DNA of 42,239 bases from a virus. The position numbers and the translations under genes are program-made. Under the pieces are notes generated by a model that made no database searches, was not told the origin of the DNA, and saw nothing but the letters and a program-made list of their open reading frames with translations. Position 1 is the stretch's first letter; each line of letters starts with the position of its first letter. The stretch spans positions 1 through 42,239 of IMG/VR virus record IMGVR_UViG_3300017698_000025. One strand, 5' to 3'. Shown one piece after another: positions 2,658 to 42,239 of the stretch.

Positions 2658-2884
2658 TGACGGAATATGTGACCCAGCCTGACAGTTTCCCGACCCGCAA
2701 GGTCACGGCGGCCACGCTTGGCGCTTCGGTCGGCGCGGCGCTGTCTCAGATCATCGTCAACGTGATCGATGCGCATGTGCCTCTGCTGGCCGGTGCCGAT
2801 GTCGCTGCGCTGATCTACACCGTAGTTCCGGGCCTCGTGGCGTATGGTCTCGGATGGTTCGTGAAGGAGCGCGCGAAATTATGA
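2657..2884 (+). CDS. Holin candidate (two transmembrane segments)
   Basis: 75 aa. Two hydrophobic stretches (VTAATLGASVGAALSQIIVNVI and VAALIYTVVPGLVAYGLGWFV) and a charged C-terminus KERAKL. The ATG overlaps the endolysin TGA (GTGATGA). Confidence 0.7.
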   Translation: MTEYVTQPDSFPTRKVTAATLGASVGAALSQIIVNVIDAHVPLLAGADVAALIYTVVPGLVAYGLGWFVKERAKL

Positions 2885-3132
2885 TCGCTTTCGTCCTCTC
2901 GCGCGTTGGTATCTGGGGGGCTGGGGCAGCCGCGCTCGCTGCTGTCGTGGCGGCATTCGCCGGGTACCATGCCGGTGGGTTCGTCACGGAGAAGACGTGC
3001 CGGGCGGACCTGATCGCAGAAATCAACGAGGCAACCAATGTCGACATCGAAAAGGCTCTTGAAGCTGGGCGGCGTGCTGAGCGCGATTACGATGCTGGCC
3101 GCGTGCCAGACGACCCGTACCGCCGTGACTAG
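2881..3132 (+). CDS. i-spanin (Rz-like inner-membrane spanin subunit)
   Basis: 83 aa. N-terminal TM (IWGAGAAALAAVVAAFAGY) followed by a charged helical periplasmic part. ATGA overlap with the holin stop. Contains the o-spanin start in its +1 frame. Confidence 0.75.
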   Translation: MIAFVLSRVGIWGAGAAALAAVVAAFAGYHAGGFVTEKTCRADLIAEINEATNVDIEKALEAGRRAERDYDAGRVPDDPYRRD

Positions 3133-3241
3133 CAACGGTTGCACGGTGTTCGGCCCCATCACCTATTCGTCCGGGGACCACCCAGCCACGGTCCGTCAGG
3201 TCGTCGTCCACAACGCCAAATATGACGGTCTGTGCAAATGA
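3038..3241 (+). CDS. o-spanin (Rz1-like outer-membrane lipoprotein), overlapped architecture
   Basis: 67 aa. Signal peptide with lipobox L-A-A-C (MSTSKRLLKLGGVLSAITMLAAC). Starts inside the i-spanin gene in the +1 frame and extends beyond it. Confidence 0.8.
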   Translation: MSTSKRLLKLGGVLSAITMLAACQTTRTAVTSNGCTVFGPITYSSGDHPATVRQVVVHNAKYDGLCK

Positions 3242-3588
3242 CCGAGGTGGAAGCCGTGCAGCTTGAAACCCGCGTCCAAATGATCATTGCGCGCTGGGCC
3301 GGGGCTATCCTGCTGTCTTGCGGCGCCGGGTTTCTCATCCTGATCTGGCAGGCATCGGAATGGGTATCGGTGACGAACCAGCGGCTCGGACAGCTGGAGA
3401 ACGTCTCACGCTCTATCGACGTGGTGGAGGAGGCCGCGAACACGAATGCTAAGTCTCTGGTGAAAGTCGGGCAGCAGTGGGAGGGGGTGGATCGACGCCT
3501 CAACAACATGGAGGCGTCGACCGACCGGATTATCACGATCCTGCTAGATCAGAACCGCAGGGCTGAGAAGGATGTGGACGGGCGCTAG
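3238..3588 (+). CDS. Membrane-anchored coiled-coil protein, unknown function (last gene of the lysis cassette and late operon)
   Basis: 116 aa. ATGA overlap with the o-spanin stop. One TM (WAGAILLSCGAGFLILIW) followed by a heptad-like helical region. Confidence 0.65.
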   Translation: MTEVEAVQLETRVQMIIARWAGAILLSCGAGFLILIWQASEWVSVTNQRLGQLENVSRSIDVVEEAANTNAKSLVKVGQQWEGVDRRLNNMEASTDRIITILLDQNRRAEKDVDGR

Positions 3589-3598
3589 GGCTCTGTAC

Positions 3599-3784
3599 TT
3601 ATTCATTCGGCTCTGCGCTGATTGGACTATCGTATTCCCACTCGATAAGCTCATCCCCTGTCGACTCCATTATAATGTCCATGGCCTTCGCCTTCAACAT
3701 GGCTTCGTCGCGAGAGGACGCGGTCACGTATCCCCAAGCTCGCCCGGTGATGCTAAATAGCACTGCATACTCTTTCTGCTCCAT
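3599..3784 (-). CDS. Hypothetical protein
   Basis: 61 aa. The ATG overlaps the RecT stop (GTGATGG context). Last gene of the leftward recombination operon. Confidence 0.55.
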   Translation of the reverse strand: MEQKEYAVLFSITGRAWGYVTASSRDEAMLKAKAMDIIMESTGDELIEWEYDSPISAEPNE

Positions 3785-5993: not shown

Positions 5994-6027
5994 GTCCCCA
6001 ATATACGGACGACGGAAAATCAGTCAA
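5994..6027 (-). promoter_or_regulatory. Leftward sigma70-like promoter with a 17-bp palindromic operator over the -10 (recombination operon)
   Basis: The minus strand reads TTGACT(6027-6022)-N16-TATATT(6005-6000). Operator GTCCGTATATTGGGGAC lies at 6010-5994. The start codon of the first gene is at 5973. Confidence 0.7.
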
Positions 6028-6031
6028 CCCC

Positions 6032-6066
6032 TTGACGCGGATAATTCACGTCCATAATATGGGGAC
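6032..6066 (+). promoter_or_regulatory. Rightward sigma70-like promoter with a 17-bp palindromic operator over the -10 (regulation/replication operon)
   Basis: TTGACG(6032-6037)-N17-TAATAT(6055-6060). Operator GTCCATAATATGGGGAC at 6050-6066. The two -35 boxes are back to back, 4 bp apart (AGTCAAccccTTGACG). Confidence 0.7.
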
Positions 6067-6094: not shown

Positions 6095-6316
6095 ATGAGA
6101 TCACCGGCAGACATCGTCATCGAGACATGGGGCACCGTGCGCGCTACGGCACGTCGCCTCGGGTACTCGAAATCATACGTTCACAGCTGGCAAACACGCC
6201 GGCAGGGGGAGCGCGTCGGGTGCATCCCGCAAGAGGCAATCGACCGGGCGCTGACTGCCGCGCGCGAGGACGGAATCAAGCTGACGCTGGAGCAGCTGCA
6301 TTATGGAGAGGTATGA
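6095..6316 (+). CDS. Cro/YdaS-like helix-turn-helix regulator
   Basis: 73 aa. First ATG downstream of the predicted transcript start, with AGAGAGAGG upstream. HTH segment TVRATARRLGYSKSYVHSWQ. Confidence 0.7.
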   Translation: MRSPADIVIETWGTVRATARRLGYSKSYVHSWQTRRQGERVGCIPQEAIDRALTAAREDGIKLTLEQLHYGEV

Positions 6317-6531
6317 TGGGGTTGTTTGATGGGATTACGGGGCCTTTCTGGGGGCATGAGAACCTTCAGAACCGGTATGAACTGGATCGTCAGGCTCAAC
6401 TGTATGCCCAGCCTCAGATATGGCAAAGCTACACGCCACCCGCACGGAGCCGCCTGCACAACCTTCGCTCCTACCGGGCGCGCATCATCCTCCACTCCAA
6501 CCCATCAACCCGAGTCAGGCGCCAGACATGA
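6313..6531 (+). CDS. Hypothetical protein
   Basis: 72 aa. ATGA overlaps at both ends (with the Cro-like stop and with the next start) suggest translational coupling. No recognisable motif. Confidence 0.45.
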   Translation: MMGLFDGITGPFWGHENLQNRYELDRQAQLYAQPQIWQSYTPPARSRLHNLRSYRARIILHSNPSTRVRRQT

Positions 6532-6845
6532 TCGCTTCATGCCCATGCTGCGGGCAGGCCGTTTCAGAGGCCATCCCGCTTGAACAGCTAGCAACGAGCG
6601 TATCTGGGCGCGTGCGGCTGGCGATCATGGACACCCTGATCAAGAACATCGGGAAGTGGACGACTTCAAGCCGCTTGGTTCAGGCTGTCTACCAAGACGC
6701 AAACGAAGAACCCGAGTACGCGGATAATACCATGCGCGTGACCATCCACCATATGCGCCCCATCATAAGGCAGTATGGCTGGGAGATCGTCGCTGTGAGA
6801 GGCGACGGGAAGGGCTACCAACTGCGTCCGGTCAGGGACGCGTGA
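6528..6845 (+). CDS. Standalone OmpR/PhoB-type winged-helix DNA-binding protein with an N-terminal CPCC motif
   Basis: Starts MIASCPCCGQ. The C-terminal part NTMRVTIHHMRPIIRQYGWEIVAVRGDGKGYQLRP matches the Trans_reg_C pattern (RV.ih.lR.k......I.tvrg.GY.L). Confidence 0.7.
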   Translation: MIASCPCCGQAVSEAIPLEQLATSVSGRVRLAIMDTLIKNIGKWTTSSRLVQAVYQDANEEPEYADNTMRVTIHHMRPIIRQYGWEIVAVRGDGKGYQLRPVRDA

Positions 6846-7156: not shown

Positions 7157-8609
7157 GCGCGTTCTCTACACCCTTCCGACCGGTGGCGGGAAGACCGTCA
7201 CGTTCAGCGACATCTGCCGCTGCGTCGTGGCCAAGGGAAACCGCGTCTACATCACCGCGCACCGTCGCCAGATCGTCAACCAGATCTCCGACGCGCTCGC
7301 TATGTTCGGCGTCCAGCACGGGCTGCTGCTTCCGGGCCACAGGATCACGTCTGACCGCGTTCAGGTCGGCATGGTCCAGACCATCGCCAGGAGGCTGCAC
7401 CTGCTGCCCGAGCCGAACATGCTGATCGTCGATGAGGCGCACCACGCTCCGGCCGGGTCGTGGAAGAAACTCTCGGACGAATGGGAGAAGGCACGCCACC
7501 TCGGCGTGACGGCCACCCCTGAACGGCTCGACGGCAAACCCCTCGGGGACTGCTACGACTCCCTGCTGATCGGGCCGTCAACACGCGACCTGATCGACGA
7601 TGGATACCTCTGCAACTTCGATTACTACTCACCTCCGGTGCAGGCCGACCTTGACGGGCTCGGAACGCGCATGGGCGACTTCAAATCTGAGGAACTGGAG
7701 GCCGCGATGGACCGGCCGACCGTCACCGGAGATGCCGTCGCGCACTATGCGAAGCTGGTCAATGGCGCGCCAGCCATCGCGTTCTGTGTGACGATCAAAC
7801 ACGCACAGCACGTGGCGGCATCGTTTCAGGCGGCCGGGTTTCGCTCGACGCACATTGACGGCGGCATGGACGAAAACACGCGGGCGCGGATCTTCTCCGA
7901 TCTGGCGGCTGGGCGCATCCAGGTTCTCACGTGCGCCGAACTGATCTCAGAGGGCGTCGACATCCCGGCTGTGGCGGCGGCGATCCTGCTGCGTCGCACG
8001 AAGTCCCTCACGATGTACCTCCAGCAGGTTGGGCGTGCTCTCAGGCCGGTCTACGCGGACGGGTTCGACCGTGACATGCAGTGCGGCCGCCTGTCTTCCA
8101 TCGCGGCGTCTGACAAGCCCCGTGCGTTCATCCTTGACCACGTCGGAAATTCGAAGATCCACGACGGGCCGGCTTTCCCCAGAAACTGGACACTAGACGG
8201 TAAGCGCGACGACGGGTCGCTTGAGACAGTCACCTGCAAGCGCTGCTTTCGGACATGGGAGCGCGGTGAACAGCGCGAATGCGGCGACGACAGCTGTCCG
8301 TTGCGTGGCCGGGCTGCCTCCACTGCTGATGGCCGACCGGCGCCTGAGATCGTAGACGGGTGGTTGGAACTTCAGTCACGCGATCCGCTCGCATGGGCCG
8401 GAGGGATTGACATCATCCGGGCAACGGGCGCCGAATGGCACGCTTTATTGCAGCGGGCGGGAGGGAACGCGGAATGCCTCAAACAGATCGAGAAGCTACG
8501 CGGGTACAAGCGCGGGTGGCACCTGCACGTCTTGCGGGACAGGCAGAAAAAAGAAAAGGAAAGGGCCACTCAGGATGAACTTCGGCGGATCGGATTTCCG
8601 ACCTTTTGA
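7089..8609 (+). CDS. Superfamily-2 DEAD/DEAH-box helicase with a C-terminal Cys-rich (zinc-ribbon-like) region
   Basis: AGGAGGG RBS. Motif I LPTGGGKT, motif II IVDEAHH, motif III GVTATP, motif VI QQVGRALR. VTCKRCFRTWERGEQRECGDDSCPL lies near the C-terminus. The start could be 7089 or 7092. Confidence 0.88.
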   Translation: MMKLRPYQARDVERIRQEFRHTRRVLYTLPTGGGKTVTFSDICRCVVAKGNRVYITAHRRQIVNQISDALAMFGVQHGLLLPGHRITSDRVQVGMVQTIARRLHLLPEPNMLIVDEAHHAPAGSWKKLSDEWEKARHLGVTATPERLDGKPLGDCYDSLLIGPSTRDLIDDGYLCNFDYYSPPVQADLDGLGTRMGDFKSEELEAAMDRPTVTGDAVAHYAKLVNGAPAIAFCVTIKHAQHVAASFQAAGFRSTHIDGGMDENTRARIFSDLAAGRIQVLTCAELISEGVDIPAVAAAILLRRTKSLTMYLQQVGRALRPVYADGFDRDMQCGRLSSIAASDKPRAFILDHVGNSKIHDGPAFPRNWTLDGKRDDGSLETVTCKRCFRTWERGEQRECGDDSCPLRGRAASTADGRPAPEIVDGWLELQSRDPLAWAGGIDIIRATGAEWHALLQRAGGNAECLKQIEKLRGYKRGWHLHVLRDRQKKEKERATQDELRRIGFPTF

Positions 8610-9240
8610 GTCGGACGAGGACGTTCTGGCCTATCACTCGCGCAAGGCGTCACGCGCTGCCATGCGAGCCCGCAAGTGGGGCGCCCAGGCTGGACGATGC
8701 GCATACTGCCGCGCTCCGATGAAGTGGGCTGCGTCACGGCGGCACGGGAATGCTCGACTGACGAAACTCTGCATGACGGAGGACCACGTCCACCCGACCG
8801 GGCGCGGCGGTCAGAACGTCGAGAGCAACATCGTCCTGTCGTGTCACTGGTGCAACGCGCGCAAGGGGATGATGACGGGTGCCGAATGGGTCGCCGTACT
8901 CTGGGAGGAAAAGGACATGGGCGCACGCGAAACGCCGCTGATGAAGGAAATTCTCGTGGCGCTGTGGAGGGAGTTTCCAGACGGCCTCTGGTATCGGCGG
9001 AACGTCGGATCAGCCAGGGCAGGCGACCGGTTCGTCCGGTTTGGCATGGCCGGGCAGGCGGATATCCCGGGGATCCTCGATGGTCGCGCGATAGAGGTTG
9101 AGGTAAAGCCGGACACCGGCCGGCAGAGCCAAGATCAGAAGCACTGGCAGGCCGCCGTCGAGCGGGCCGGTGGCGTGTATCTCCTGGTGCGCAGCGTCGA
9201 TGACGCGATTGACGGCGTTCGGAAGGCGGTGGGGAGGTGA
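8575..9240 (+). CDS. HNH endonuclease fused to a VRR-NUC (PD-(D/E)XK) nuclease domain
   Basis: N-terminal half CAYCRAP...TEDHVHPTGRGGQNVESNIVLSCHWCNARKG is an HNH motif. C-terminal half WYRRNVGSA..FVRFGMAGQADIPGIL.GRAIEVEVKPDTGRQSQDQKHWQAAVERAGGVYLLVRS follows the VRR-NUC pattern. No stop codon between the two halves. Confidence 0.8.
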   Translation: MNFGGSDFRPFESDEDVLAYHSRKASRAAMRARKWGAQAGRCAYCRAPMKWAASRRHGNARLTKLCMTEDHVHPTGRGGQNVESNIVLSCHWCNARKGMMTGAEWVAVLWEEKDMGARETPLMKEILVALWREFPDGLWYRRNVGSARAGDRFVRFGMAGQADIPGILDGRAIEVEVKPDTGRQSQDQKHWQAAVERAGGVYLLVRSVDDAIDGVRKAVGR

Positions 9241-11867
9241 CTGATCTCGTCTCAATGTTCCTGGACGCCATGCAATCGTCAGGCGTTCTAGGCTGCTCAG
9301 ACCCCATCGCAGACGGCAAGATCCACCGGTTTACCGTAGCTGGAGACAGGCCGAAATCCGATAATGGGTGGTACGTCCTGTTTCTGGACGGCGACTTCGC
9401 GGGCGGTGCCTTCGGGTCGTGGAAACTCAGCGTTTCCGAAACGTGGCACGCTCGCGAGGGCGGCAAGAAGATCACCACGGCGCAGCGCAAACGGGTGCGC
9501 GATCTGGCAGAGATGTCGGAGGCCGAGCGCCAGCGCATCGCTGCTGAGGTGGCCGTCAAGGCCGCTGCGATCTGGAAGGCAGCCTCCCCGTCCACGGCAG
9601 AACACGCCTACGCCGCGCGCAAGCGGATCACGCCGCTCGGGACCCGCATCGACAGGCACGGAAATCTGGTGGTGCCGGTCAGGAATTCGGATGGAGAACT
9701 TCGGTCGCTCCAACTGATCAAGCCGGACGGGAACAAGCTGTTTCTCACAGGCGGCGAGATCGGAGGCAACTGGTCGTCGGTCGGCCGCGCTGGCGACACG
9801 ATGCTGATCTGCGAGGGATACGCTACGGCGTGCACACTACATGAGGCGTGCGGGCTGGGCGTGTTCATCGCGTTCAACAACGGAAACCTGCCGGTCGTGG
9901 CCGAGCGCGTGCGCAGGAAGTACCCGGACGCCGCCCTGATCGTATGCGGCGACAACGACCACAAGACCGAAGGAAACCCCGGCGCCGGCTCGATGCGTGA
10001 GGCGGCCGCGATCTGCAAGGGGCACACGCTGCTGCCGGAGGGCATCAAGGGCACCGACTTCAACGACATGGCCGCCGAGATCGGCATAGACGCGGTCAAT
10101 GCCGCGATCAGAACGAAGCTGGACGCCATCCGCGAAGAACCGCCAGCACCCCAGCCGGGGACTGTTCAGGCGCCAGAAGATCTGGAGGACGACGACGCAA
10201 CGCGCGTGGGTGCTCCACAGCCGCTCGGATACGACAAGGGCGTGTACTACTACTATTCCATGGAGACGCGGCAGGTGGAACAGCTGACACCGGCTGAGCA
10301 CACGCCGCGCTCGCTCATGCACCTCGCCAGCGAGGCTTACTTCTGGTCGCGCACATCGTTCCAATCGAAGAACGGCGTCAACTACAATGACGCGGCCGAC
10401 TGGATGATGCACCGCTGTCGCCAGAAGGGCATCTTCAACATCGACCGCATCCGGGGTCGTGGTGCGTGGCTGGAGGGCAAGAAGGCCATCGTCCATTTTG
10501 GCGACCGTCTCGTTGTGGACGGCAAGACCTGCAACCTGTCGGATTTCAGCGGAGGGCCGTTCCTCTATCAGGCCGCCACGCCTCTCGTCTACGAAACACC
10601 GGAGCCGCTTTCCAAGCGCGAGGCGCATCGGCTTCAGGAGATCTGCGAACTCATCAACTGGCGCGATCCGCTCCACGCCAAGCTGCTGGCCGGCTGGATC
10701 GCCCTCGCCCCTATCTGCGGCGCACTGAACTGGAGGGCGTCGATCTGGATTACCGGGGCGTCCGGCTCCGGCAAGACGTGGATCATGACGCACATCATCA
10801 AGGGCGCCCTCCGCGACGTGTCGCTGATGGTCTCCAGCGGGACCACGGAAGCCGCTCTTCGCCAGAAGCTGGACAGCGACGCGCTCCCGGTGGTCTTCGA
10901 CGAGGCCGAAGGCGAGAAGATGGTGGACGCCCAGCGCATGGACGCCGTACTCCAGCTGGTCCGTCAGTCGTCGTCCGAGCAGGACGCGGCGATCCTGAAG
11001 GGGTCACAGAACCAGAAGGGCGCGAAGATGTACCGGATGCGCTCGTGCTTCGCGTTCATGTCGATCAACGTCGGTCTCGTGGAGCGAGCGGACGAAAGCC
11101 GCATAACGGTGCTCCCACTCGAAAGCGCGGACCGATCCGACCCAGAACAATCCGCCATCGCGGACGACAATTTCGAGGAACTGGAGCGGCTGGTGCGTGA
11201 GACGATTACGCCTGATTTCTCGTCTCGTCTGATTATGCGCTCGGCCCGGCTTATCCCGGTGATCCGCAAGAACCACGACACGTTTTCCCGTGCTGTCGGG
11301 TCCGTGTTCGGGGACCGGCGTGCCGGCGATCAGCTGGGCGCCCTTCTGGCCGGGGCGTACTCGCTCACCTCAGAGGCAGAGATCACCTACGACGCGGCGC
11401 GCGCGTGGATCGAGACGCACTCGAACCTGAAGGCGTCCACTGTGGCCGATGAGCAGACGGACGAGGAACGGTTCCTGTCTCACGTGAAACAGGCCATGGT
11501 GCGCGTCCAGGGTGTCAATGGGCACGGCGTGCTAGACCGACAGATTGGCGAGTTGATGGACGCCGCTCGAACCGTCGAGGGTGGGTACGGGATGGTCTAC
11601 ACCGAGGCGCGACAGACGCTCATGCGCTGCGGTATCCGGTATCAGTCGGAGGACGACGGCGGCGAGGGGTTTTGGATTTCGCACTCGTCAAAGGGACTGA
11701 AGAACCGTATCCTGAAGGACGCGCCGGCCTGGGGCCGAAAGCCCGCGCTGACGCTGAGCCGGATACGTGGCGCCGTGAACAGCGACAACCCGATCCGGTT
11801 CGCTGGCGACAAGGAGCGCGCGACGTTCCTGCCGTGGTCCGTGGTCAAGGGAGACGATGATGCCTGA
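9237..11867 (+). CDS. Primase-helicase: COG4643-like N-terminal domain, Toprim primase and P-loop helicase (P4-alpha/DUF927-like)
   Basis: 876 aa. GKIHRF..DNGWYVLFLDG..GAFGSW; Toprim motifs LICEGYATA and CGDNDH; Walker A ITGASGSGKT; Walker B VVFDEAE. The GTG start overlaps the upstream TGA. An alternative ATG is at 9255. Confidence 0.88.
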   Translation: MTDLVSMFLDAMQSSGVLGCSDPIADGKIHRFTVAGDRPKSDNGWYVLFLDGDFAGGAFGSWKLSVSETWHAREGGKKITTAQRKRVRDLAEMSEAERQRIAAEVAVKAAAIWKAASPSTAEHAYAARKRITPLGTRIDRHGNLVVPVRNSDGELRSLQLIKPDGNKLFLTGGEIGGNWSSVGRAGDTMLICEGYATACTLHEACGLGVFIAFNNGNLPVVAERVRRKYPDAALIVCGDNDHKTEGNPGAGSMREAAAICKGHTLLPEGIKGTDFNDMAAEIGIDAVNAAIRTKLDAIREEPPAPQPGTVQAPEDLEDDDATRVGAPQPLGYDKGVYYYYSMETRQVEQLTPAEHTPRSLMHLASEAYFWSRTSFQSKNGVNYNDAADWMMHRCRQKGIFNIDRIRGRGAWLEGKKAIVHFGDRLVVDGKTCNLSDFSGGPFLYQAATPLVYETPEPLSKREAHRLQEICELINWRDPLHAKLLAGWIALAPICGALNWRASIWITGASGSGKTWIMTHIIKGALRDVSLMVSSGTTEAALRQKLDSDALPVVFDEAEGEKMVDAQRMDAVLQLVRQSSSEQDAAILKGSQNQKGAKMYRMRSCFAFMSINVGLVERADESRITVLPLESADRSDPEQSAIADDNFEELERLVRETITPDFSSRLIMRSARLIPVIRKNHDTFSRAVGSVFGDRRAGDQLGALLAGAYSLTSEAEITYDAARAWIETHSNLKASTVADEQTDEERFLSHVKQAMVRVQGVNGHGVLDRQIGELMDAARTVEGGYGMVYTEARQTLMRCGIRYQSEDDGGEGFWISHSSKGLKNRILKDAPAWGRKPALTLSRIRGAVNSDNPIRFAGDKERATFLPWSVVKGDDDA

Positions 11868-12054
11868 GATCTCGGACGGCCTCGAAGACTGGAAGGTCGC
11901 CATCGCTACGCTGAGGGAGGCGGCGGTGCGTGGCCGCTCCGTCTCTCCGCACCCTTACGACGAACGCGAAAAAAAATGGGTCCAAGAGGGACCCAAGTTG
12001 AGGGAGAACGGGGAAGTGGATTGGGCGGCGTTAGATACGGTTAAGGGGGAGTGA
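11857..12054 (+). CDS. Hypothetical protein
   Basis: 65 aa. The ATGATG start overlaps the end of the primase gene. Last gene of the rightward operon. Confidence 0.5.
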   Translation: MMPEISDGLEDWKVAIATLREAAVRGRSVSPHPYDEREKKWVQEGPKLRENGEVDWAALDTVKGE

Positions 12055-12960: not shown

Positions 12961-13283
12961 CACTCTCCCTCCATCTTGTGGGGGTTGGGGAGGGCGCGGA
13001 TGTCATCCTCGATGAGGTCGGCAGCCGTGTCAGACGCAACACTATCAGGGCGGTGCGACCACCCTTTAGATCGGATTCCCGCCTCCTCCGCACTCGCCGT
13101 CCTTCCCTGCTCCCATGCGGAGGCTTCGCGGGCTTGGACCTGGGCGAGGGTGAAGAGGTGGCGCTCTTCGAACGGCCACTTCGGGTTTCCTTCCCACTGC
13201 CCGTCCATCCATCCGGACCAACCCTCGTCTTGAGGGCGCCGAAATCGGAACTGTCGCAGGACAGGCTCCATCTCCTCAGCCAT
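12960..13283 (-). CDS. Hypothetical Trp-rich protein
   Basis: 107 aa. AAGGAGA RBS. 8-nt overlap with the HNH-AP2 gene. Confidence 0.6.
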   Translation of the reverse strand: MAEEMEPVLRQFRFRRPQDEGWSGWMDGQWEGNPKWPFEERHLFTLAQVQAREASAWEQGRTASAEEAGIRSKGWSHRPDSVASDTAADLIEDDIRALPNPHKMEGE

Positions 13284-13848
13284 GGTCTGTCTCCTTGAGG
13301 GTGGAGCGGATGTCGTCTGAGAAGTTTAGCGTTGCGAAGACTCCGTGAAGCCGAGCGGCGGCATCGTCATAGGCAAATGCGGCGTCTATCTCTAGACGGT
13401 GAAGCCCGAGCCCAATCTTGCTTCTCTTCCCATTCGAAATCTGCGCCCTCCACTTAGCTTCGCGTGCGTCCCAAGACACTCCGCGATAAATAGAGGACTT
13501 CCCAACCTTCATTCTGCAATTGCGCGAGTTCTCCGCGTGCGTGCAGGACCTGAGATTTTCAGGCCTATTATCTGCCCTGTCACGGTTTATATGGTCGATA
13601 ACATCTGGGTCGTAACCATGAACCATCTTCCAAATAACACGATGAGCGAAATAAAATGTGCGGTCTATCTTCCCGCATCTGTAACCATCACCATTGATCC
13701 TGGTGAACGCCGTCTTTCCAGCAAACTTCCCATTCCACCACGGAAGATGTGGTTGGGCCCTCCAAACCAAACGTCCGCAGGGGTGAAGCTCTAGCCGCTG
13801 AAGGAGATATTTTTGTTCTGGAAGTTGGGCATACTTCTGGCCGCTCAT
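13276..13848 (-). CDS. HNH-AP2 homing endonuclease
   Basis: 190 aa from MSGQKY. AHRVIWKMVHGYDPDVIDHINRDRADNRPENLRSCTHAENSRN is an HNH_3-type motif. YRGVSWDAREAKWRAQISNGKRSKIGLGLHRLEIDAAFAYDDAAARLHGVFATLNF follows the AP2 DNA-binding pattern. Visibly AT-richer than the flanks. Confidence 0.85.
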   Translation of the reverse strand: MSGQKYAQLPEQKYLLQRLELHPCGRLVWRAQPHLPWWNGKFAGKTAFTRINGDGYRCGKIDRTFYFAHRVIWKMVHGYDPDVIDHINRDRADNRPENLRSCTHAENSRNCRMKVGKSSIYRGVSWDAREAKWRAQISNGKRSKIGLGLHRLEIDAAFAYDDAAARLHGVFATLNFSDDIRSTLKETDHG

Positions 13849-14030
13849 TCCTGCTCCCCCTCCGGCTCGACTTCCGGGGCGGTGGAGAGGACGGCGTTGA
13901 TTTTCTGCCGCGCCATCGTGGTTGTGATGTCCCGTTCGCCGGGAAGTTCGGCCCAATCGCACGTCGCTTTCGCAAGTGCCCATGCCCACTCGTCCGTCGC
14001 CTCTGCCGGCACTGTCACTGTCTTACCCAT
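13845..14030 (-). CDS. Hypothetical protein
   Basis: 61 aa. The stop overlaps the HNH-AP2 start (ATGA). Confidence 0.55.
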   Translation of the reverse strand: MGKTVTVPAEATDEWAWALAKATCDWAELPGERDITTTMARQKINAVLSTAPEVEPEGEQE

Positions 14031-14520
14031 CGTTCCCGTCCTCCACGAGGGTGAGGTCGGAGAGGGTGCGCGGCGAACCCCCAGGATAGAAATCGAACCG
14101 ATGGTGATATTTCAGGTAGGCTTGTTGTCCATCAGCACTGATTGCATCGACGATCCCGCCGTAAGAGGCGTGCTGGTGGTTTACAGGCTTAGTAAAAACA
14201 AGGCTCCCCACCTTGATCTCCTGCGGCTTGCGGGAGACGAGGGTGGAGGCGGCGAGGACTTCGTGCCTGAACGCGTAGTCGCCATCGAATGTCAGGGGGC
14301 GCACGCGAATTGATTTACCTATGCCGACATGCTCCACGATGAAGCGAATGTCCCACACGTCGCCTTCGCGCACTTCGGTATTCACGCTCATCACAACCCT
14401 CACTCTCTCTTTCGGCCAAATCCCTAGCGTCCCTTTATGCCGGACAATTACGTGGTCGTCAAGCAGGCGGTAAACCTCTCCGGGGCCGTCCGGGGTGGAT
14501 ACCGGGTCGCAGGGTTTCAT
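14023..14520 (-). CDS. Hypothetical protein (beta-rich)
   Basis: 165-aa ORF, coupled to its neighbours by overlaps. Confidence 0.65.
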   Translation of the reverse strand: MKPCDPVSTPDGPGEVYRLLDDHVIVRHKGTLGIWPKERVRVVMSVNTEVREGDVWDIRFIVEHVGIGKSIRVRPLTFDGDYAFRHEVLAASTLVSRKPQEIKVGSLVFTKPVNHQHASYGGIVDAISADGQQAYLKYHHRFDFYPGGSPRTLSDLTLVEDGNDG

Positions 14521-17694: not shown

Positions 17695-17730
17695 GTCCCC
17701 AATATACGGACGTGCACGCACCCCTGTCAA
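17695..17730 (-). promoter_or_regulatory. Leftward sigma70-like promoter with a 17-bp palindromic operator over the -10 (small-ORF operon)
   Basis: The minus strand reads TTGACA(17730-17725)-N18-TATATT(17706-17701). Operator GTCCGTATATTGGGGAC (17711-17695) is identical to the one at 5994-6010. Confidence 0.7.
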
Positions 17731-17811
17731 CGCCTTTTTAAATCGCCGCGCATTTTTTTCGAGCGCTCCAGGCTGCGTGCACACACGGCTTCCACCCCGA
17801 ACCGGTGGCGG

Positions 17812-17853
17812 AGTTCATTTTTCAGACATCAGAATTCATTTTTAAAACATCAC
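17812..17853. repeat. Tandem AT-rich 21-mer direct repeat (2 copies)
   Basis: agttcatttttcagacatcag followed by aattcatttttaaaacatcac; 17 of 21 positions identical. Confidence 0.8.
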
Positions 17854-18047
17854 GTCTCGGCAACCCCAGATTTTATTCCGCAGCGATGTCACAACCGTGC
17901 TGCACCCTCCATGATTTTAATCATGCCCAATTACAACCATTCCGGGCTAAATATGTGTGTTCAAAATGTGGCGAAACGCTCGGAAACGGCATCAAACCAC
18001 CGTAATATGCGCACACAGTGCCGTTTATCAAACCACGAGGCCAGATT

Positions 18048-18427
18048 TGTCCCAAAAATATGTAGTGAAACAAATGGCTTAGCCGAATGTTTCACGTTTC
18101 GTCCCGGCTGGGACAGAAAATTCCGCGCGGTTGTCCCGGAATAGATTAGCGAATTCAACGGGTTATGTGCTTGGGACGAAAACACAGTGGTAAAACCTCC
18201 AGATATATACCCACTGTGTGTGCATACACACGACGTGCATACGCGCGCGTACACCCACACGGGGCGTTTTTGCGTGGTTATTTCGTCCCACAGTAGTAGT
18301 ATCAGAAAAAAGATATATGAATGAATGACTTAGGGGTGGGACAAAAATGGGCCACCGCTGGGACAAGGTCGATCCCGCCACATTTCAGCGGAAATCCTTC
18401 AATGAAATCAGACGGGTCAATGGGACA
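18048..18427. repeat. Iteron-like array: 9 copies of (T/C)GGGAC(A/G), usually followed by an A-run; candidate origin or regulator-binding array
   Basis: Plus orientation at 18109, 18172, 18337, 18359 and 18421. Minus orientation at 18048, 18100, 18132 and 18284. Non-coding, AT-richer context. Confidence 0.75.
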
Positions 18428-18532
18428 GGTTGGTTTTTTCGCAGGATTGTGGCGCCCGGCAGAAATTTTCTGTTGCGGTAGGGTCCTAGGTGTGTGATCT
18501 TGACTGCGCAACCAACCAACGGAGTGAGTGGA

Positions 18533-18745
18533 ATGTTTGAAATTGAAGACAAGCCTGTGGATGAGAACGCGCAGCGTGGGAAATACCCGTTTTGTGATAT
18601 GGCTGCCGGGCAGTCGTTCACGATCCCCGCTGAGATTGCCGCGAAAGTCTCCAACGCGGCAGTCAGCTACGGCAAAACCCACGGCATGAAATTTTCCACC
18701 CGCAGACAGGTCGACGGGACCTACCGCTGCGGCCGCGTCGCCTGA
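18533..18745 (+). CDS. Hypothetical protein
   Basis: 70 aa starting MFEIEDKP. GGAGTGAG RBS. First gene to the right of the non-coding region. Confidence 0.65.
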   Translation: MFEIEDKPVDENAQRGKYPFCDMAAGQSFTIPAEIAAKVSNAAVSYGKTHGMKFSTRRQVDGTYRCGRVA

Positions 18746-19089
18746 TGCCGCTCGGGAAAAACTCATACGGCCAGGGCCAGAAACCCGTCTACGCGTGGTG
18801 CGGAACATTCGGGCGGCTGAACATCCTCGGGAAATCCGAGGCGGAGTTACAGGCGCTCCGTTCCGGCCTCCCCGACCGATGGCGCACACACACGCTCGAA
18901 ACCGAGACCGGCAAGACGTACCCGATGCCCTGGGCAGATCTGCTGCCGCTGGATTACTTCGTCGCGCAAGAAAAGCGCAGGACGGAACGCCATCTGCGCA
19001 ACTACGGAAACCGTATAGCTCGGGGCACGTCAGTCAAATTTGCGTACAGAACAACGGAGGATGGCGTTTATGTCTACCGAGTGGAGTGA
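18745..19089 (+). CDS. Hypothetical protein (C-terminal module paralogous to 18533..18745)
   Basis: 114 aa. TGATG overlap. Its C-terminus NYGNRIARGTSVKFAYRTTEDGVYVYRVE resembles SYGKTHGMKFSTRRQVDGTYRCGRVA in the preceding gene. Confidence 0.65.
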   Translation: MPLGKNSYGQGQKPVYAWCGTFGRLNILGKSEAELQALRSGLPDRWRTHTLETETGKTYPMPWADLLPLDYFVAQEKRRTERHLRNYGNRIARGTSVKFAYRTTEDGVYVYRVE

Positions 19090-19095
19090 GGAACG

Positions 19096-19254
19096 ATGAA
19101 CACATTTGCAATCTTCTTTTGTGCGGCAACGGCATTCATATGCTTTCTTTTGCTGCCTGACGGTGTTACTTGGGAGGAAATCAGAATACCATTTATAATG
19201 GGCGTTAATTCAATGGCAGCCATGGCTATAATCGTCCGCAACCTAACCTCTTGA
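19096..19254 (+). CDS. 52-aa two-TM membrane protein in a low-GC patch (absent from the ORF track)
   Basis: My own translation is MNTFAIFFCAATAFICFLLLPDGVTWEEIRIPFIMGVNSMAAMAIIVRNLTS. GAGG RBS 5 nt upstream. Clearly AT-richer than the neighbours. Confidence 0.5.
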   Translation: MNTFAIFFCAATAFICFLLLPDGVTWEEIRIPFIMGVNSMAAMAIIVRNLTS

Positions 19255-19301
19255 CGCCAGATCCAATCCATGCCTACATTCCGGCCAAGAAGGGAAAACC
19301 G

Positions 19302-19475
19302 ATGGATGTCGACCTGAACGCTGACCTGCGCCTCGAATGCCTGCGACTGGCGAGGGGAGACCTAAACGCTGCGGCGCGGCTCGAACGGTGGGTCAAGACC
19401 GGCGATGCGAGCGAGCCGGAATTCGAGGATTCCGATGATTTCACTGATTTCGTCAGGCAGGCAACCGTGATATGA
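19302..19475 (+). CDS. Hypothetical acidic protein
   Basis: 57 aa starting MDVDLNADL, with AAGGGA upstream. The ORF-track version begins at an upstream TTG codon. Confidence 0.5.
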   Translation: MDVDLNADLRLECLRLARGDLNAAARLERWVKTGDASEPEFEDSDDFTDFVRQATVI

Positions 19476-19735
19476 CCGACCTGACCCGCAACCTGGAAAT
19501 CGCGGACACGTTCGCCGAACGCTTCGGCAGGCAATCCTGCCGCGTCGAGAAAATCGATGGCTCATCCATGCCTGACGCCGTCATGGTCGCATATCACGAC
19601 GCCATCACAGGACTCGGCATGACCATCTGGGTGTTCGGAAAGCAGCAGTTCAAGGGGTTCGTCGAGCAGACCGGCCACGACTTGTGCTACGGAAACGTGG
19701 CCGAGCGGTTTGCGCAGTTCTGTGAGGTGGATTGA
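19472..19735 (+). CDS. Hypothetical protein
   Basis: 87 aa. ATGA overlap upstream and TGATG overlap downstream. Confidence 0.6.
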   Translation: MTDLTRNLEIADTFAERFGRQSCRVEKIDGSSMPDAVMVAYHDAITGLGMTIWVFGKQQFKGFVEQTGHDLCYGNVAERFAQFCEVD

Positions 19736-20127
19736 TGGCAGGCCGTCCATCCACATACACCGAGAAGCTGTCGGACGAGATCTGCGGACGCATCACGAAC
19801 GGCGAAAGCCTCAGCGCTATCTGTCGTGAGCCGGCGATGCCGGCGCCGTCTTCGGTGTTCAAGTGGTTGCGAGAGCATCCTTCATTCTCGGAGAGATACG
19901 CGATTGCTCGCCAAGAGCAGGCCGACACCTTGGCCGATCAGATCACTGCAATCGCAGACGATCTCACAGGAGACCCGGCACGCGACAGGCTTCGCATCGA
20001 CGCCCGCAAATGGATCGCCTCGAAGCTTAAGCCGAAAGCTTACGGCGACAAGGTCGATATGACACACAGCGGCGGAGATACTCCGATCCAGCACGAGATC
20101 GAAGTTCGTATCGTGAAGGCGACGTGA
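19735..20127 (+). CDS. terS: Terminase small subunit (HTH-type)
   Basis: MAGRPSTYTEKLSDEICGRITNGESLSAICREPAMPAPSSVFKWLREHPSFSERYAIARQEQADTLADQI...RIDARKWIASKLKPKAYGDK matches the widespread GRPskYt...ic..i..G.sl..ic......P....v..Wl......f...Ya.Are small-terminase pattern. Confidence 0.8.
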   Translation: MAGRPSTYTEKLSDEICGRITNGESLSAICREPAMPAPSSVFKWLREHPSFSERYAIARQEQADTLADQITAIADDLTGDPARDRLRIDARKWIASKLKPKAYGDKVDMTHSGGDTPIQHEIEVRIVKAT

Positions 20128-20291
20128 TGCCCGGACCCCTCGCCTTCATCCTCACGATCGTCATTGGCATCGCGGTCCTTCTAGCTGCCGTCTGGTTAGG
20201 CCTGTGGCTGCTGCGGCTGGTGTTTCATCTGGCGCTTCTGGCCGTCGTGACCATCTTGTTCCTGCTGGTGGGCGGCCGAACCGAGGCTTGA
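20127..20291 (+). CDS. 54-aa two-TM membrane protein (absent from the ORF track)
   Basis: My own translation is MPGPLAFILTIVIGIAVLLAAVWLGLWLLRLVFHLALLAVVTILFLLVGGRTEA. TGATG overlap with the terS stop. Confidence 0.5.
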   Translation: MPGPLAFILTIVIGIAVLLAAVWLGLWLLRLVFHLALLAVVTILFLLVGGRTEA

Positions 20292-20300
20292 AAATAGGTG

Positions 20301-20335
20301 TTGACACCCATGCGATGTGTCCATATATTAAGGAC
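20301..20335 (+). promoter_or_regulatory. Rightward consensus sigma70 promoter with a 17-bp palindromic operator over the -10 (packaging, structural and lysis operon)
   Basis: TTGACA(20301-20306)-N17-TATATT(20324-20329). Operator GTCCATATATTAAGGAC at 20319-20335. Confidence 0.75.
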
Positions 20336-20354
20336 ATCAGCAAGGGAGATCGAC

Positions 20355-20510
20355 ATGAACATTGGTTCGAACGTCAAGGTCACGGGTCGTCAGAACACTT
20401 TCGAGGTGGTGCGCCTGTACGAGATTGCCGGGATCCCCTCGGCTAAGATCGTCGATTGGAAGAATAAGCTATGCTTGTGCCATCGGGTGGAGGACCTTCG
20501 CGTCATCTAA
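20355..20510 (+). CDS. Hypothetical small protein
   Basis: 51 aa starting MNIGSNVKV. GGGAGA RBS. First ORF after the promoter. Overlaps the annotated terL start by 40 nt. Confidence 0.5.
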   Translation: MNIGSNVKVTGRQNTFEVVRLYEIAGIPSAKIVDWKNKLCLCHRVEDLRVI

Positions 20511-21853
20511 AAACCATCTCCCTCGCCGTTCCTGAAAAGCTGGAGCCGCTGCTCTACCCGAAGCGCTACAAGGGCGCCTACGGTGGACGCGGCGGCGCCA
20601 AGTCGCACTTCTTCGCCGAGCAGATCGTCATCCGGTGCTTCCAGCGCAAAACGCGCGTGGTGTGCATCCGTGAGGTTCAGAACAGCCTCAAGGAATCGTC
20701 GCGCCAGCTGATCATCGACAAGATCTTCAAGCTCGGGCTTGAGGATCAGTTCGAGATCCTGGAAGCCGAGATCAGGTGCCGAGCCAACGGCTCTCTGATC
20801 ATCTTCAAGGGGATGCAGTCCTACAACGCGGCGAATATCAAGTCGCTTGAGGGCTTCGATATCGCGTGGGTGGAAGAGGCCCAGACGATGTCGCGCACGT
20901 CGCTCATGATGCTGCGCCCAACCATCCGCAAACCCGGCAGTGAGCTGTGGTTCTCGTGGAACCCGCGTTACAAGACCGACCCTGTCGATGAGTTCTTCCG
21001 CAAGTCTCCCTCGCCAGAAGCCATATCCATCGCCATCAACTGGCGCGACAACCCGTGGTTCCCGGACGAACTGCGCCAGGACATGGAGCACGACTTCACG
21101 ACCGACCCAGACACCGCCGAGCACGTATGGGAGGGCGCCTATGGTGCGTCCGAGGGCGCCATCCTCGCGAAGTGGATCAACCGGGCCGAGCGTGATGGCC
21201 GCATCAGCGACGACATCGAGTTCGACCCGTTCGGCGCCCCCGTCGAGATCAGCGCTGACATCGGGTTCCGGGATACCGCGTCGTGGTGGTTCTGGCAGCC
21301 TCGCATCAACGGGTTCGCAGTGCTGCGCAACCGTCGCGATCGCGGCATGGACGCCGAGGATTGGGTCAAGGAGATCGAGGCCGAGTTGAGGCGCATGGGC
21401 GTGCGGCCGGAAAAGCTGGGGCGGATCTGGTTGCCGCAGGACGCCAAGGCGAAGACGTTCGGGACGAAGCACACGAGTGTGGAGCGGTTCATAGCGAAGT
21501 TTGGGCACGCTAAGGTGCGCATCGTGCCACCGTCCCGTAAGGCGGACCAGATCAGCGCGGCGCGCGCGATGGTGCCCCTCTGCCGGTTCGCCAAGACGGC
21601 ATGTGACGAGGGGCTGGACGGCCTGCGCGCATGGGAGTTCGAATACGACGATGAGAACGACGTGTTCAGCCGTGAGCCGAAGCACAATTGGGCCTCGCAC
21701 GACGGCGACGGGTTCGCCTACGGGTGTCAGGTGCTGAGACAACGTGAATTGACGATTGCCGAAGAGCCTGACAGAATGCTGGCTGTTGGTCCGCTGAACA
21801 CGGTGACGTTGAACGACCTGTGGGATGCGCAGAAAGTGAGGAAGCGGAGATGA
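20471..21853 (+). CDS. terL: Terminase large subunit (PBSX / Terminase_3-like)
   Basis: 460 aa. Walker-A-like RYKGAYGGRGGAKS, Walker B/coupling GFDIAWVEEAQ, and nuclease-half motifs (WLPQDA, ASHDGDGFAY). The exact start is uncertain. Confidence 0.9.
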   Translation: MLVPSGGGPSRHLKTISLAVPEKLEPLLYPKRYKGAYGGRGGAKSHFFAEQIVIRCFQRKTRVVCIREVQNSLKESSRQLIIDKIFKLGLEDQFEILEAEIRCRANGSLIIFKGMQSYNAANIKSLEGFDIAWVEEAQTMSRTSLMMLRPTIRKPGSELWFSWNPRYKTDPVDEFFRKSPSPEAISIAINWRDNPWFPDELRQDMEHDFTTDPDTAEHVWEGAYGASEGAILAKWINRAERDGRISDDIEFDPFGAPVEISADIGFRDTASWWFWQPRINGFAVLRNRRDRGMDAEDWVKEIEAELRRMGVRPEKLGRIWLPQDAKAKTFGTKHTSVERFIAKFGHAKVRIVPPSRKADQISAARAMVPLCRFAKTACDEGLDGLRAWEFEYDDENDVFSREPKHNWASHDGDGFAYGCQVLRQRELTIAEEPDRMLAVGPLNTVTLNDLWDAQKVRKRR

Positions 21854-23058: not shown

Positions 23059-23216
23059 TCCCAACTCGGCAGCGCCTGCTGGATACTGTATCGGCCGTCG
23101 CTATCTCAGCGATGCATCGATCAACGCCGTCCGGAGCGTGGGTTCGCGTTGGATCTCGTCAGGATCATATCCAATGGTATTCACCACGTGGCTGTGCTTG
23201 ACGCGGAGGCGAAGAA

Positions 23217-23468
23217 GTGACGGTATACGGCACTCAGGCCAGAGCGGTGCACCATCTTCTGCGGATATGGGAGCAGTATGGGGACCTGCATGACGAGCCT
23301 GGGAAGAACGTCGAGTTCGACCATCGGAATATGCGGGCTGGCGAGGATGCCGGCGCGTTTCTGGTTGAACTCGGGCTCGCGGTGGACAACGGGCGTTCCG
23401 TCGTCCTGACCGACGAAGGGCAGCGCATTCTCGACGATGACAGCCTTGACGCGGGGGCGAAGAAGTGA
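23217..23468 (+). CDS. Small winged-helix-like protein (paralogue of 22858..23058)
   Basis: 83 aa. GTG start 7 nt after GGAGG. FLVELGLAVDNGRSVVLTDEGQRIL parallels the wing of the preceding protein. Confidence 0.55.
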   Translation: MTVYGTQARAVHHLLRIWEQYGDLHDEPGKNVEFDHRNMRAGEDAGAFLVELGLAVDNGRSVVLTDEGQRILDDDSLDAGAKK

Positions 23469-23656
23469 AGTGGATACCCGATCTGACGCCGAAGCAGGTT
23501 GACGAGATCCCGGAGGACGTTCCGGAGGGCCGTCAGGCGCGATTCTCGCGATATTATCCAGATGATCGCTGCTACCACCTCGATAGCGGCGGCCACGCGT
23601 GGAAGATCAATCGTTTGGTTGGTGGCGGATATTACAAGATCGCTTCGCTCTGGTGA
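23465..23656 (+). CDS. Hypothetical protein
   Basis: 63 aa. The GTG start lies in the second repeat copy and overlaps the upstream TGA. Confidence 0.5.
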   Translation: MKWIPDLTPKQVDEIPEDVPEGRQARFSRYYPDDRCYHLDSGGHAWKINRLVGGGYYKIASLW

Positions 23657-23848
23657 TTGACGCGGAGGCGAAATCGAGGTAGGTTTGATTATTGAGTGAT
23701 GGAAACGCCTGAACCGGTGAGGGAGGGTGAGATGAAATCGCGGGGGTAATGTCCCGCATCCAATTCAGTTCCGGTGCGGCCGCTCTTATTGCGAGCACCT
23801 ATAGTGCGCTGGGGGTTGGCGATCTCTAGGGCCGCACCGATACAGTTC

Positions 23849-29814: not shown

Positions 29815-29846
29815 AATCCCGGTCCTTCATTTGAGGACCGTCGCAG

Positions 29847-41655: not shown

Positions 41656-42239
41656 ATGCCACGTAACGGATCGGGCGTTTTCACGGTCATCAACAGCTTC
41701 ACGCCGAGCACGGTGATCGCGTCGTCCCAGATGAACGCGAACTTCACGGACGTGGCCACGGCGCTCACGCAGTCCGTAGCGACGACTGGCGTGTCGGCCA
41801 TGGCAGCGAACCTTCCGATGGGGAACAACCGCATCACGGGGCTCGCGCAGGGCACCGCAGGCGCCGACGCGGTCAATAAGAACCAGCTTGACGTTCTGAT
41901 GGGTGGCCTGACCACGGCTGGCTCCGCAGGCACGTATACGTTGACCAGCGGAACATCGATTACGACGCTGGCGGATGGGCTCATGGTGGTCGTGCGCATC
42001 AACGCGACGAACGCCGGGGCGTCCACACTGAACGTCGACGGGCTCGGCGCGAAGGCCATCCGGTATCAGTACAGCGCTGGTGACAACGCCGTTTATGCTG
42101 GCGCCCTGTCTGAGGACGCGCTGTTCACGATGGTCTACAGCGAGTCCGCGAACTCGGCCGCTGGAGCGTGGATCGTGCTGAACCCGGCGACGGTGCGGGG
42201 GACGTGGACGCCGATTACTGTCGGGACTACCACGACGTA
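41656..42239 (+). CDS. Tail fibre protein, N-terminal part (continues at 100..424 after the circular junction)
   Basis: GAGG RBS then ATG at 41656. MPRNGSGVFTVINSFTPSTVIASSQMNANFTDVATALTQS...NRITGLAQGTAGADAVNKNQLD is the typical conserved N-terminus of phage tail fibres. The ORF runs off the window end in frame. Confidence 0.8.
   Translation, partial: MPRNGSGVFTVINSFTPSTVIASSQMNANFTDVATALTQSVATTGVSAMAANLPMGNNRITGLAQGTAGADAVNKNQLDVLMGGLTTAGSAGTYTLTSGTSITTLADGLMVVVRINATNAGASTLNVDGLGAKAIRYQYSAGDNAVYAGALSEDALFTMVYSESANSAAGAWIVLNPATVRGTWTPITVGTTTT
42141..42239. repeat. 99-bp terminal direct repeat, copy 2 (identical to 1..99)
   Basis: Exact match to bases 1-99. Confidence 0.97.

Follow-up and report, generated by a model that had tools for sequence, protein, structure and literature searches.

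Why should the promoter that stands before the late genes of a phage carry, across its -10 hexamer, the same dyad as the promoters of the early operons? The question is raised by positions 20301-20335 of IMGVR_UViG_3300017698_000025, an IMG/VR virus record of 42,239 nucleotides (nt) that was analysed along its entire length and is referred to here as the window. The element in question, which we call the 20301 promoter, lies ahead of the large terminase gene (terL). An earlier reading of the same DNA, made from the letters and a list of open reading frames (ORFs) and referred to below as the first-pass annotation, had proposed that the late operon starts here and that a single repressor might hold all of the promoters silent. 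The answer that we consider best, and hold only tentatively, at somewhat less than an even chance, is that Cro-type feedback or shut-off acts on every promoter used by the host RNA polymerase, the late operator being a sequence variant of the early ones. As part of that reading, positions 20301-20335 would be a functional promoter for the host sigma70, predicted from its letters to be the strongest of the genome.

The promoter before terL and its recurrent dyad

The element is composed of two hexamers and a palindrome that covers the second of them:

20301-20306, plus strand: -35 hexamer TTGACA of the promoter before terL
20324-20329, plus strand: -10 hexamer TATATT, separated from the -35 by a 17-nt spacer
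20319-20335: 17-bp dyad GTCCATATATTAAGGAC, that is GTCC-ATATATTAA-GGAC, a putative operator

The first-pass annotation had read TTGACA-N17-TATATT at positions 20301-20329. Letters and positions are both correct and, with 11 of the 12 consensus positions of a host-type sigma70 promoter and its N17 spacer, the site is the top-scoring match in the genome. It is preceded, 5' of the -35, by an A-rich tract resembling an UP element (GAAAATAGG, 20290-20298), and it fills the 63-bp intergenic gap (20292-20354) between two plus-strand ORFs. Transcription is predicted to start at about 20336-20337, from where it is 18-19 nt to an ATG at 20355 that is preceded by a Shine-Dalgarno sequence (AAGGGAGA, 20342-20349). 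Sigma70 hexamers at a spacing of 17 +/- 1 nt are in this way combined with an intergenic placement ahead of a gene that has a ribosome-binding site. The dyad covers the -10, extending from about -17 to -1, has the general form Y-GTCC-N9-GGAC-R, and its symmetry can be extended to TGTCC...GGACA (20318-20336). That the promoter dyads act as RNA hairpins is unlikely, since the predicted start sits at the 3' edge of the dyad.

The arrangement is found at four further places in the genome:

6032-6066, plus strand: rightward early promoter TTGACG-N17-TAATAT with the dyad GTCCATAATATGGGGAC (6050-6066)
5994-6027, minus strand: leftward early promoter TTGACT-N16-TATATT with the dyad GTCCGTATATTGGGGAC, driving the operon of a YqaJ exonuclease and RecT
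17695-17730, minus strand: second leftward early promoter TTGACA-N18-TATATT, its dyad identical to that at 5994, driving an operon of small genes from 17657 to 12368
14429-14462, minus strand: fifth composite copy, TTGACG-N11-GTCCGGCATAAAGGGAC (GTCC-GGCATAAAG-GGAC)

The cores that had been quoted at 6050, 5994 and 17695 were given correctly, and the statement that late and early promoters share one dyad in one register is borne out, the -10 beginning 5 nt past the G of GTCC in all four. The two early promoters diverge directly from each other, the centres of their dyads being 56 bp apart. The copy at 14429-14462 had been overlooked in the first-pass annotation. Its -10 is degenerate, the T at -7 being missing, and it sits within a 165-amino-acid (aa) ORF of the leftward operon that is probably coding, since its GC1/2/3 pattern is coding-like and it overlaps the ORF upstream by ATGA. 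This copy may be a weak internal promoter, a site that serves only as operator or roadblock, or a relic. A sixth GTCC-N9-GGAC, extended to cgGTCC...GGACcg, is found without a promoter at 29822-29838. The full palindrome (cgGTCCTTCATTTGAGGACcg, 29820-29840) is situated in the 32-bp interval that precedes the major head gene, whose Shine-Dalgarno sequence it takes in. As RNA it would form an 8-bp hairpin hiding the Shine-Dalgarno GAGGA, with a z-score of only -1.56. It may be a sixth binding site, a hairpin affecting translation or stability, or a product of chance.

For the promoter dyads themselves, copy number excludes chance as the source of the shared motif. GTCC-N9-GGAC occurs six times against 1.45 expected, a count reached by none of 100 shuffles, and the composite TTGAC-N12-14-GTCC-N9-GGAC five times against 0.02 expected; palindrome variants with one mismatch are not in excess (26, with 29.5 expected). 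Two promoter matches in the genome score 11/12 or better where 0.05 would be expected, and five score 10/12 or better against 1.0. Among the 15 promoter-like sites scoring at least 9/12, an in-register palindrome is present on exactly four, which are those of the first-pass annotation. One site without it, TTGAAG-N17-TATAAT (10/12) at 3669-3697 on the minus strand, is contained in the final gene of the leftward recombination operon and is directed antisense into the late operon's 3' end; it fits the approximately one chance match expected at that score. When the five promoter regions are aligned, only TTGAC, GTCC and GGAC are invariant. Since the spacers and flanks are unrelated, the motif blocks have been kept individually and not as one duplicated stretch. 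A dyad over the -10 at five TTGAC-containing sites has the form of a repeated dyad-symmetric operator and, because the same layout is present on the late promoter, on all three early promoters and on one weak internal site, we regard all strong host-type promoters of the phage as one regulon.

The immediate neighbours of the 20301 promoter determine how much of the late region it could serve:

19735-20127, plus strand: small terminase gene (terS) of the Sf6 type (Pfam PF20901, E 1.5e-40; phrog_1482, E 2.9e-46; also a Logan gene call)
20127-20291, plus strand: 54-aa ORF with two transmembrane helices, its start overlapping the terS stop
20355-20510, plus strand: 51-aa orphan ORF, the first gene past the promoter, overlapping the start of terL by 40 nt
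20471-21853, plus strand: terL (Pfam Terminase_3, E 1.6e-36; 58-66% identity to 80 IMG/VR loci)

The proposal that a packaging, structural and lysis operon of about 25 kb starts at 20301 holds for its extent, as genes from terL to lysis lie co-directionally downstream over about 25.4 kb (20355 to 3588, across the assembly junction), with no convincing intrinsic terminator found on the plus strand of that span. It does not hold for the start. Upstream of the promoter, at a distance of 170-570 bp, is terS, and five other plus-strand ORFs, from 18533 on, are also on that side; the packaging module therefore does not start at the 20301 promoter, and terS and the other five must be served by another element. 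No acceptable sigma70 promoter was found on the plus strand of 17750-18530, and among candidates for driving the terS cluster the best is TTGACG-N18-TACATT at 19251 (9/12), a weak site that has no palindrome. The 54-aa membrane ORF is translationally coupled to terS and ends 9 nt before the -35. For the 51-aa ORF no homologue was found among 5.8e9 proteins, and a word-indexed homologue search returned only the ORF itself; the codon usage of both small ORFs is native to the phage. In relatives the two terminase genes are closer. The end of terS is 11 bp from terL in one (L031), and in another (L142) a 40-aa membrane ORF (9948-10070) comes after an Sf6-type terS and leads straight into terL, the promoter being absent between them. 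Since terS or the small membrane ORF abuts terL in these relatives, and the 51-aa ORF is an orphan, comparison of the loci indicates that the 20301 promoter and the 51-aa ORF are a lineage-specific insertion between the terS/membrane ORF pair and terL.

A Cro-family protein as the candidate binder

If the dyads form one regulon, which protein would read them? Two genes of the rightward early operon encode candidates:

6095-6316, plus strand: 73-aa Cro-family helix-turn-helix (HTH) protein, first gene of the rightward early operon and candidate dyad binder
6528-6845, plus strand: 105-aa winged-helix protein of the OmpR/PhoB type (Pfam Trans_reg_C, E 2e-6, 28.2 bits against a cut-off of 26.2)

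The 73-aa gene adjoins the divergent early promoters and starts 29 nt past the dyad at 6050-6066. Taken alone, its product gives HTH matches that fall below the Pfam cut-offs, and a word-indexed homologue search returns only the query; an exhaustive phmmer search finds 21 distant small homologues. A profile of these matches, in the PDB, XPH1 (5w8y, 3e-5), P22 Cro (1rzs, 9e-5), Xfaso-1 Cro (3bd1, 1e-4) and N15 Cro (2hin, 0.06), and 15 of 20 family members match Pfam P22_Cro (PF14549). The AlphaFold 2 model built from a 55-sequence alignment consists of five helices with a predicted local distance difference test (pLDDT) score of 91.7, a single-sequence model being unusable (pLDDT 59.8). When it was compared with the PDB by Foldseek, the nine best matches were all Cro proteins (Xfaso-1, XPH1, N15 and P22), with probabilities of 0.96-1.00 and template modelling (TM) scores of 0.52-0.71. 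Because the profile matches, the P22_Cro matches and the modelled structure agree, the protein is, by homology and model, an all-alpha Cro. It is the likeliest binder of the dyad. The 105-aa winged-helix protein, for which no PDB sequence match was found, is a second DNA-binding candidate, and is more likely an activator (for example of the promoter-less terS cluster) or a binder of the iterons described below. In another contig (L140, positions 2801-3557), a BPP-1-like podovirus of 39.4 kb, the packaging operon opens, immediately past an intrinsic terminator, with a gene of this Cro family (P0019), and terS and terL follow directly; the family is thus not confined to early 'cro' positions.

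The mechanism that we favour would run as follows. On entry all sigma70 promoters would fire, and Cro would be made from the rightward early promoter. Its dimer would bind the dyad, occupying -17 to -1 and excluding RNA polymerase, and as Cro accumulates the promoters would be turned down. The operators are not identical. The late half-sites are tGTCCATAT and tGTCCTTAA, compared with cGTCCGTAT or cGTCCATAA together with GTCCCCAA or GTCCCCAT (c or t flank) at the early sites; beside the conserved tetramers the late operator has TT/AA where the early ones have CC/GG, and its flanks are T/A instead of C/G. The affinity of the late operator could differ from that of the early operators, and would probably be lower, and through this proposed lower affinity transcription from terL through the lysis genes would persist. 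Lysis would be further delayed, as its genes are more than 20 kb downstream, and a rising number of templates would add to the delay. Timing by differential operator affinity, which the first-pass annotation had offered as its alternative to silencing, is a viable and plausible proposal that fits a Cro-family binder. A stronger version, in which the phage is CI-less and apparently virulent and its whole programme consists of host RNA polymerase and one Cro-type repressor, timed only by graded affinity, template copy number and transcription distance and with no activator, sigma factor, antiterminator or phage polymerase, we consider doubtful.

Several observations weigh against Cro-type control of the late promoter. 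The conserved symmetry is limited to the outer tetramers, which are 13 bp apart centre to centre, while the corresponding spacing in lambda and 434 operators is typically narrower, at about 10 bp. Each promoter has one operator, and there is no tripartite array. Repression of the late promoter by Cro would lower late expression when it is needed, and the difference in affinity that would relieve this is conjecture. Another repressor could be hidden among the many small ORFs to which no function can be assigned. The GGGGAC that directly follows the -10 at three promoters resembles a discriminator of the GGGA type, so that part of the right arm could be a polymerase contact. Finally, the operator is shared by no relative, and all copies in the Logan assemblies are 100% identical to the window.

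Relatives were examined over loci reaching at most 10 kb either side of the query gene. A megablast search of phages was empty, tblastn with TerL and the primase gave at most 38-41% identity, and the YqaJ query had no match in IMG/VR. The 80 IMG/VR relatives found through TerL have only the structural module in common with the window; they lack the dyad and mostly have no strong promoter upstream of terL. The operator pattern itself is absent from IMG/VR (0 matches), and its seven matches in JGI metagenomes and 42 in GTDB genomes are attributed to chance, because none is homologous to the window. The early module is more widespread, and an arrangement with RecT and YqaJ leftward and Cro, helicase and primase rightward recurs in six other contigs of uncultured phages at 33-50% protein identity. 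Between YqaJ and cro a CI-like HTH_3 gene of about 195 aa is present in L138/L139, L142 and probably L143; L136, L137, L141 and the phage described here, about half of the phages sharing the module, have the CI-less layout. In L139, a GC-rich contig, a different palindrome, TGCGA-N3-TCGCA, occurs three times against 0.012 expected, and sits exactly on the -10 of TTGACA-N18-GATAAT, the promoter of the YqaJ operon. On this precedent we take palindromes over the -10 to be a trait of the early module. Promoter scans of the AT-rich relatives L136, L137 and L141 gave noise (37 sites against 47 expected). The positions of TGCGA-N3-TCGCA are 8559, 9247 and 11950 in L138 and 5275, 5963 and 8666 in L139; a second copy lies on the -35 of a promoter past a terminator, upstream of a DUF7220-Dam-helicase operon, and this phage, in which the CI-like gene is present, has its lysis cassette directly after cro.

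Alternative readings and known systems

Would a protein bound at every dyad hold the genome silent? The first-pass annotation had raised the prospect of one repressor silencing the whole genome in a lysogen-like state, for which we find no genetic support. No homologue of a CI-type repressor, integrase, recombinase, ParA/B partition protein or protelomerase was detectable in any scanned ORF, all ORFs of more than 250 aa included, and the early promoters flank no repressor gene, there being no room for one between promoters that stand back to back. The gene set by which a temperate phage is recognised, i.e. an integrase, recombinase or plasmid-maintenance gene together with a maintenance repressor, was not found among the scanned ORFs. 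An unassigned small ORF or a host factor may act as repressor. Because CI, integrase and partition genes were not found, we interpret the circuit as negative feedback or early shut-off within the lytic cycle and not as lysogenic silencing.

That a dedicated repressor, be it an unrecognised phage ORF or a host protein, nevertheless sits on every dyad, so that the phage stays silent as in a lysogen, as a plasmid or in a carrier state, seems to us quite unlikely. Such silencing by a host protein has an example in LexA, in phages of the GIL01 type, and the idea is consistent with a dyad over the -10 of every strong sigma70 promoter, with the many ORFs that have no assignment, and with the CI-like HTH_3 gene beside cro in some of the phages that have the same early module. 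It has to be set against the undetected lysogeny and maintenance genes, the missing space for a repressor gene, the relatives L136, L137 and L141 that are likewise CI-less, and the position of all five promoter-associated dyads on lytic promoters, no unrepressed maintenance promoter being evident. Furthermore, genome matches to the early operator are scattered over unrelated taxa. A host LexA box in particular is unlikely, since the pattern matches show no enrichment in any taxon and GTCC-N9-GGAC corresponds, to our knowledge, to no known proteobacterial LexA box. The dyad could also be no operator at all, with GTCC and GGAC being elements of promoter context that RNA polymerase recognises (a G-rich discriminator, for example) or marks of descent from one duplicated promoter; although three of the five sites have GGGGAC directly past the -10, and the identical dyads at 5994 and 17695 are consistent with copying, we judge this very improbable. 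The GTCC arm mirrors the downstream arm and, as far as we know, has no role for the polymerase in its upstream position, the late site keeps its GGAC though it has no GGG run, and the invariance of the tetramers amid unrelated spacers and flanks, like the composite count given above, tells against both forms of this explanation.

A further possibility accepts the early operators as genuine and places the anomaly at 20301, where the promoter and its operator would be a cassette recently copied in together with the 51-aa ORF, in the manner of a moron; the main late start would then lie upstream, in the iteron region at about 18.5 kb or at the weak site near 19251, and would perhaps depend on an activator such as the winged-helix protein. 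This accords with the same-strand run of terS and five ORFs upstream, which has no terminator before 20301, with the absence of promoter and orphan ORF from relatives in which terS or a membrane ORF abuts terL, with the make-up of 17750-18530, where iterons are present and a good sigma70 promoter is missing, as would be expected if the start depended on an activator, and with an OmpR-type winged-helix gene inside the early operon. Against this, the 51-aa ORF overlaps terL with no terminator, so transcripts from 20301 must continue into the late genes; the supposed cassette has the best promoter of the genome, with an UP-like tract; the 51-aa and 54-aa ORFs have native codon usage; and no late promoter can be identified upstream, the best site being that at 19251. 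We consider this cassette reading unlikely.

The closest known systems are the Cro proteins of lambdoid and telomere phages (lambda, P22, N15, PY54, phiKO2, and also Xfaso-1), which share with the present case a small all-alpha HTH protein of the Cro fold, encoded by the first rightward early gene and divergent from a leftward recombination operon, and operators that are 17-bp pseudo-palindromes over core promoter elements. A study of PY54 reports a single operator per promoter for its Cro (PMC4488713), as is found here. The lambdoid systems differ from this phage in that no CI partner was detected here and there is no tripartite OR/OL array; the tetramers are at the outer ends, 13 bp apart, and the same site is also present on the promoter feeding terL together with structural and lysis genes. 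We know of no lambdoid late promoter that carries the early operator, and a literature search, which was not exhaustive, found no description of a Cro-type operator on a late promoter.

A late promoter that looks constitutive is not unusual in itself, since lambda PR', a strong activator-independent sigma70 promoter at the head of a late unit of about 25 kb, is one, and relies on a terminator and the Q protein. Here, in contrast, there is no terminator between 20336 and terL, an ATG follows 19 nt past the predicted start, and a dyad of the repressor type overlaps the promoter; no match to a Q-like antiterminator was obtained in Pfam or PHROG scans of the ORFs. The use of one recognition sequence over several transcription units is shared with C1 of P1 (more than 15 scattered operators), the 'stoperators' of mycobacteriophage L5 gp71, which include those in the structural-gene arm, and the conserved inverted repeats of phiC31. 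These are maintenance repressors of temperate phages, with sites that are asymmetric or numerous, whereas the phage described here has five to six symmetric sites, all but one on promoters, no detected lysogeny genes and a candidate protein that is unrelated. Morons, in turn, resemble the locus in having a sigma70 promoter and a small orphan ORF between genes that are adjacent in relatives. They differ in that no terminator is present here, the ORF overlaps terL and the operator is of the phage's own early type; with no terminator and with the overlap, the promoter and the 51-aa ORF are unlikely to be an autonomous unit.

What would be new is the extension of a Cro regulon to the promoter before the late genes, proposed here in silico for one metagenomic genome. 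If the dyad is a Cro operator and the promoter is active, one small repressor and a few operator variants would form a minimal temporal programme for early, replication, structural and lysis genes, in contrast to the cascades of activators, sigma factors and antiterminators in textbook phages. Five promoters of graded strength and one 73-aa repressor would, if this is true, also be a compact and orthogonal set of parts for synthetic biology. As the early module recurs with and without CI, the system could show how a lambdoid switch is rewired in the absence of CI.

Layout of the remaining genome

Positions 1-99 of the window recur exactly at 42141-42239, so the assembly comprises 42,140 bp and is circular or terminally redundant; an ORF from 41656 runs across the assembly junction to 424 (about 302 aa). 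The genome has a GC content of 61.6%. Proteins of this phage were found only in the Logan assemblies of SRR5917978-83, in contigs that are 100% identical to the window, and Rfam and tRNA scans of the window were empty.

The rightward operon from the 6050 promoter encodes, in order, the 73-aa HTH protein, a 71-aa ORF, the 105-aa winged-helix protein, a helicase, an HNH nuclease and a Toprim primase/helicase, and the leftward operon from 17695 consists of unknown small genes and an HNH-AP2 endonuclease. The plus-strand string from 18533 passes through terS, the 54-aa membrane ORF, the 20301 promoter, the 51-aa ORF and terL, and continues through the portal gene (25361; portal phrog, E 6e-178), the major head gene (29847; E 3e-106) and the tail proteins, across the junction to the lysozyme (1818-2657), ending at 3588.

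Between the start of this string and the second leftward early promoter lies the region of the iterons:

17750-18530: AT-rich non-coding region of about 800 bp, with 44-52% GC against 61.6% for the genome

It has nine copies of GGGAC/GTCCC, mostly as TGGGACA, within 400 bp (genome mean 0.78 per 400 bp, standard deviation 0.95); it also contains TTCATTTTT repeats, and cumulative GC skew has a local minimum there. From these features of its sequence the region is probably a replication origin or an array bound by an activator, and the element driving the terS cluster (18533-20291) would have to lie in it as well. The core of the iterons is similar to the operator arm (G)GGAC, and in the relative L141 CTTGGTTGTA iterons occupy the equivalent position (7852-8127).

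A strong intrinsic terminator on the minus strand (TGGGTCC-CTCTT-GGACCCA followed by T8) is found at 11977-11995, within a predicted plus-strand ORF of 65 aa (11857-12054), and would halt transcription of the leftward 17695 operon before its antisense entry into the primase gene. The two HNH endonuclease genes, one in the leftward operon (13276-13989, minus strand, HNH-AP2; phrog_99, E 1e-53) and one between helicase and primase (8575-9240, plus strand), both probably encode homing endonucleases. In the interval between terL and portal a 24-nt repeat, CTTGACGCGGAGGCGAAGAAGTGA, occurs three times (23197-23679), at spacings of 248 and 211 nt and at the ends of consecutive small ORFs, which suggests that these small genes arose by tandem duplication.

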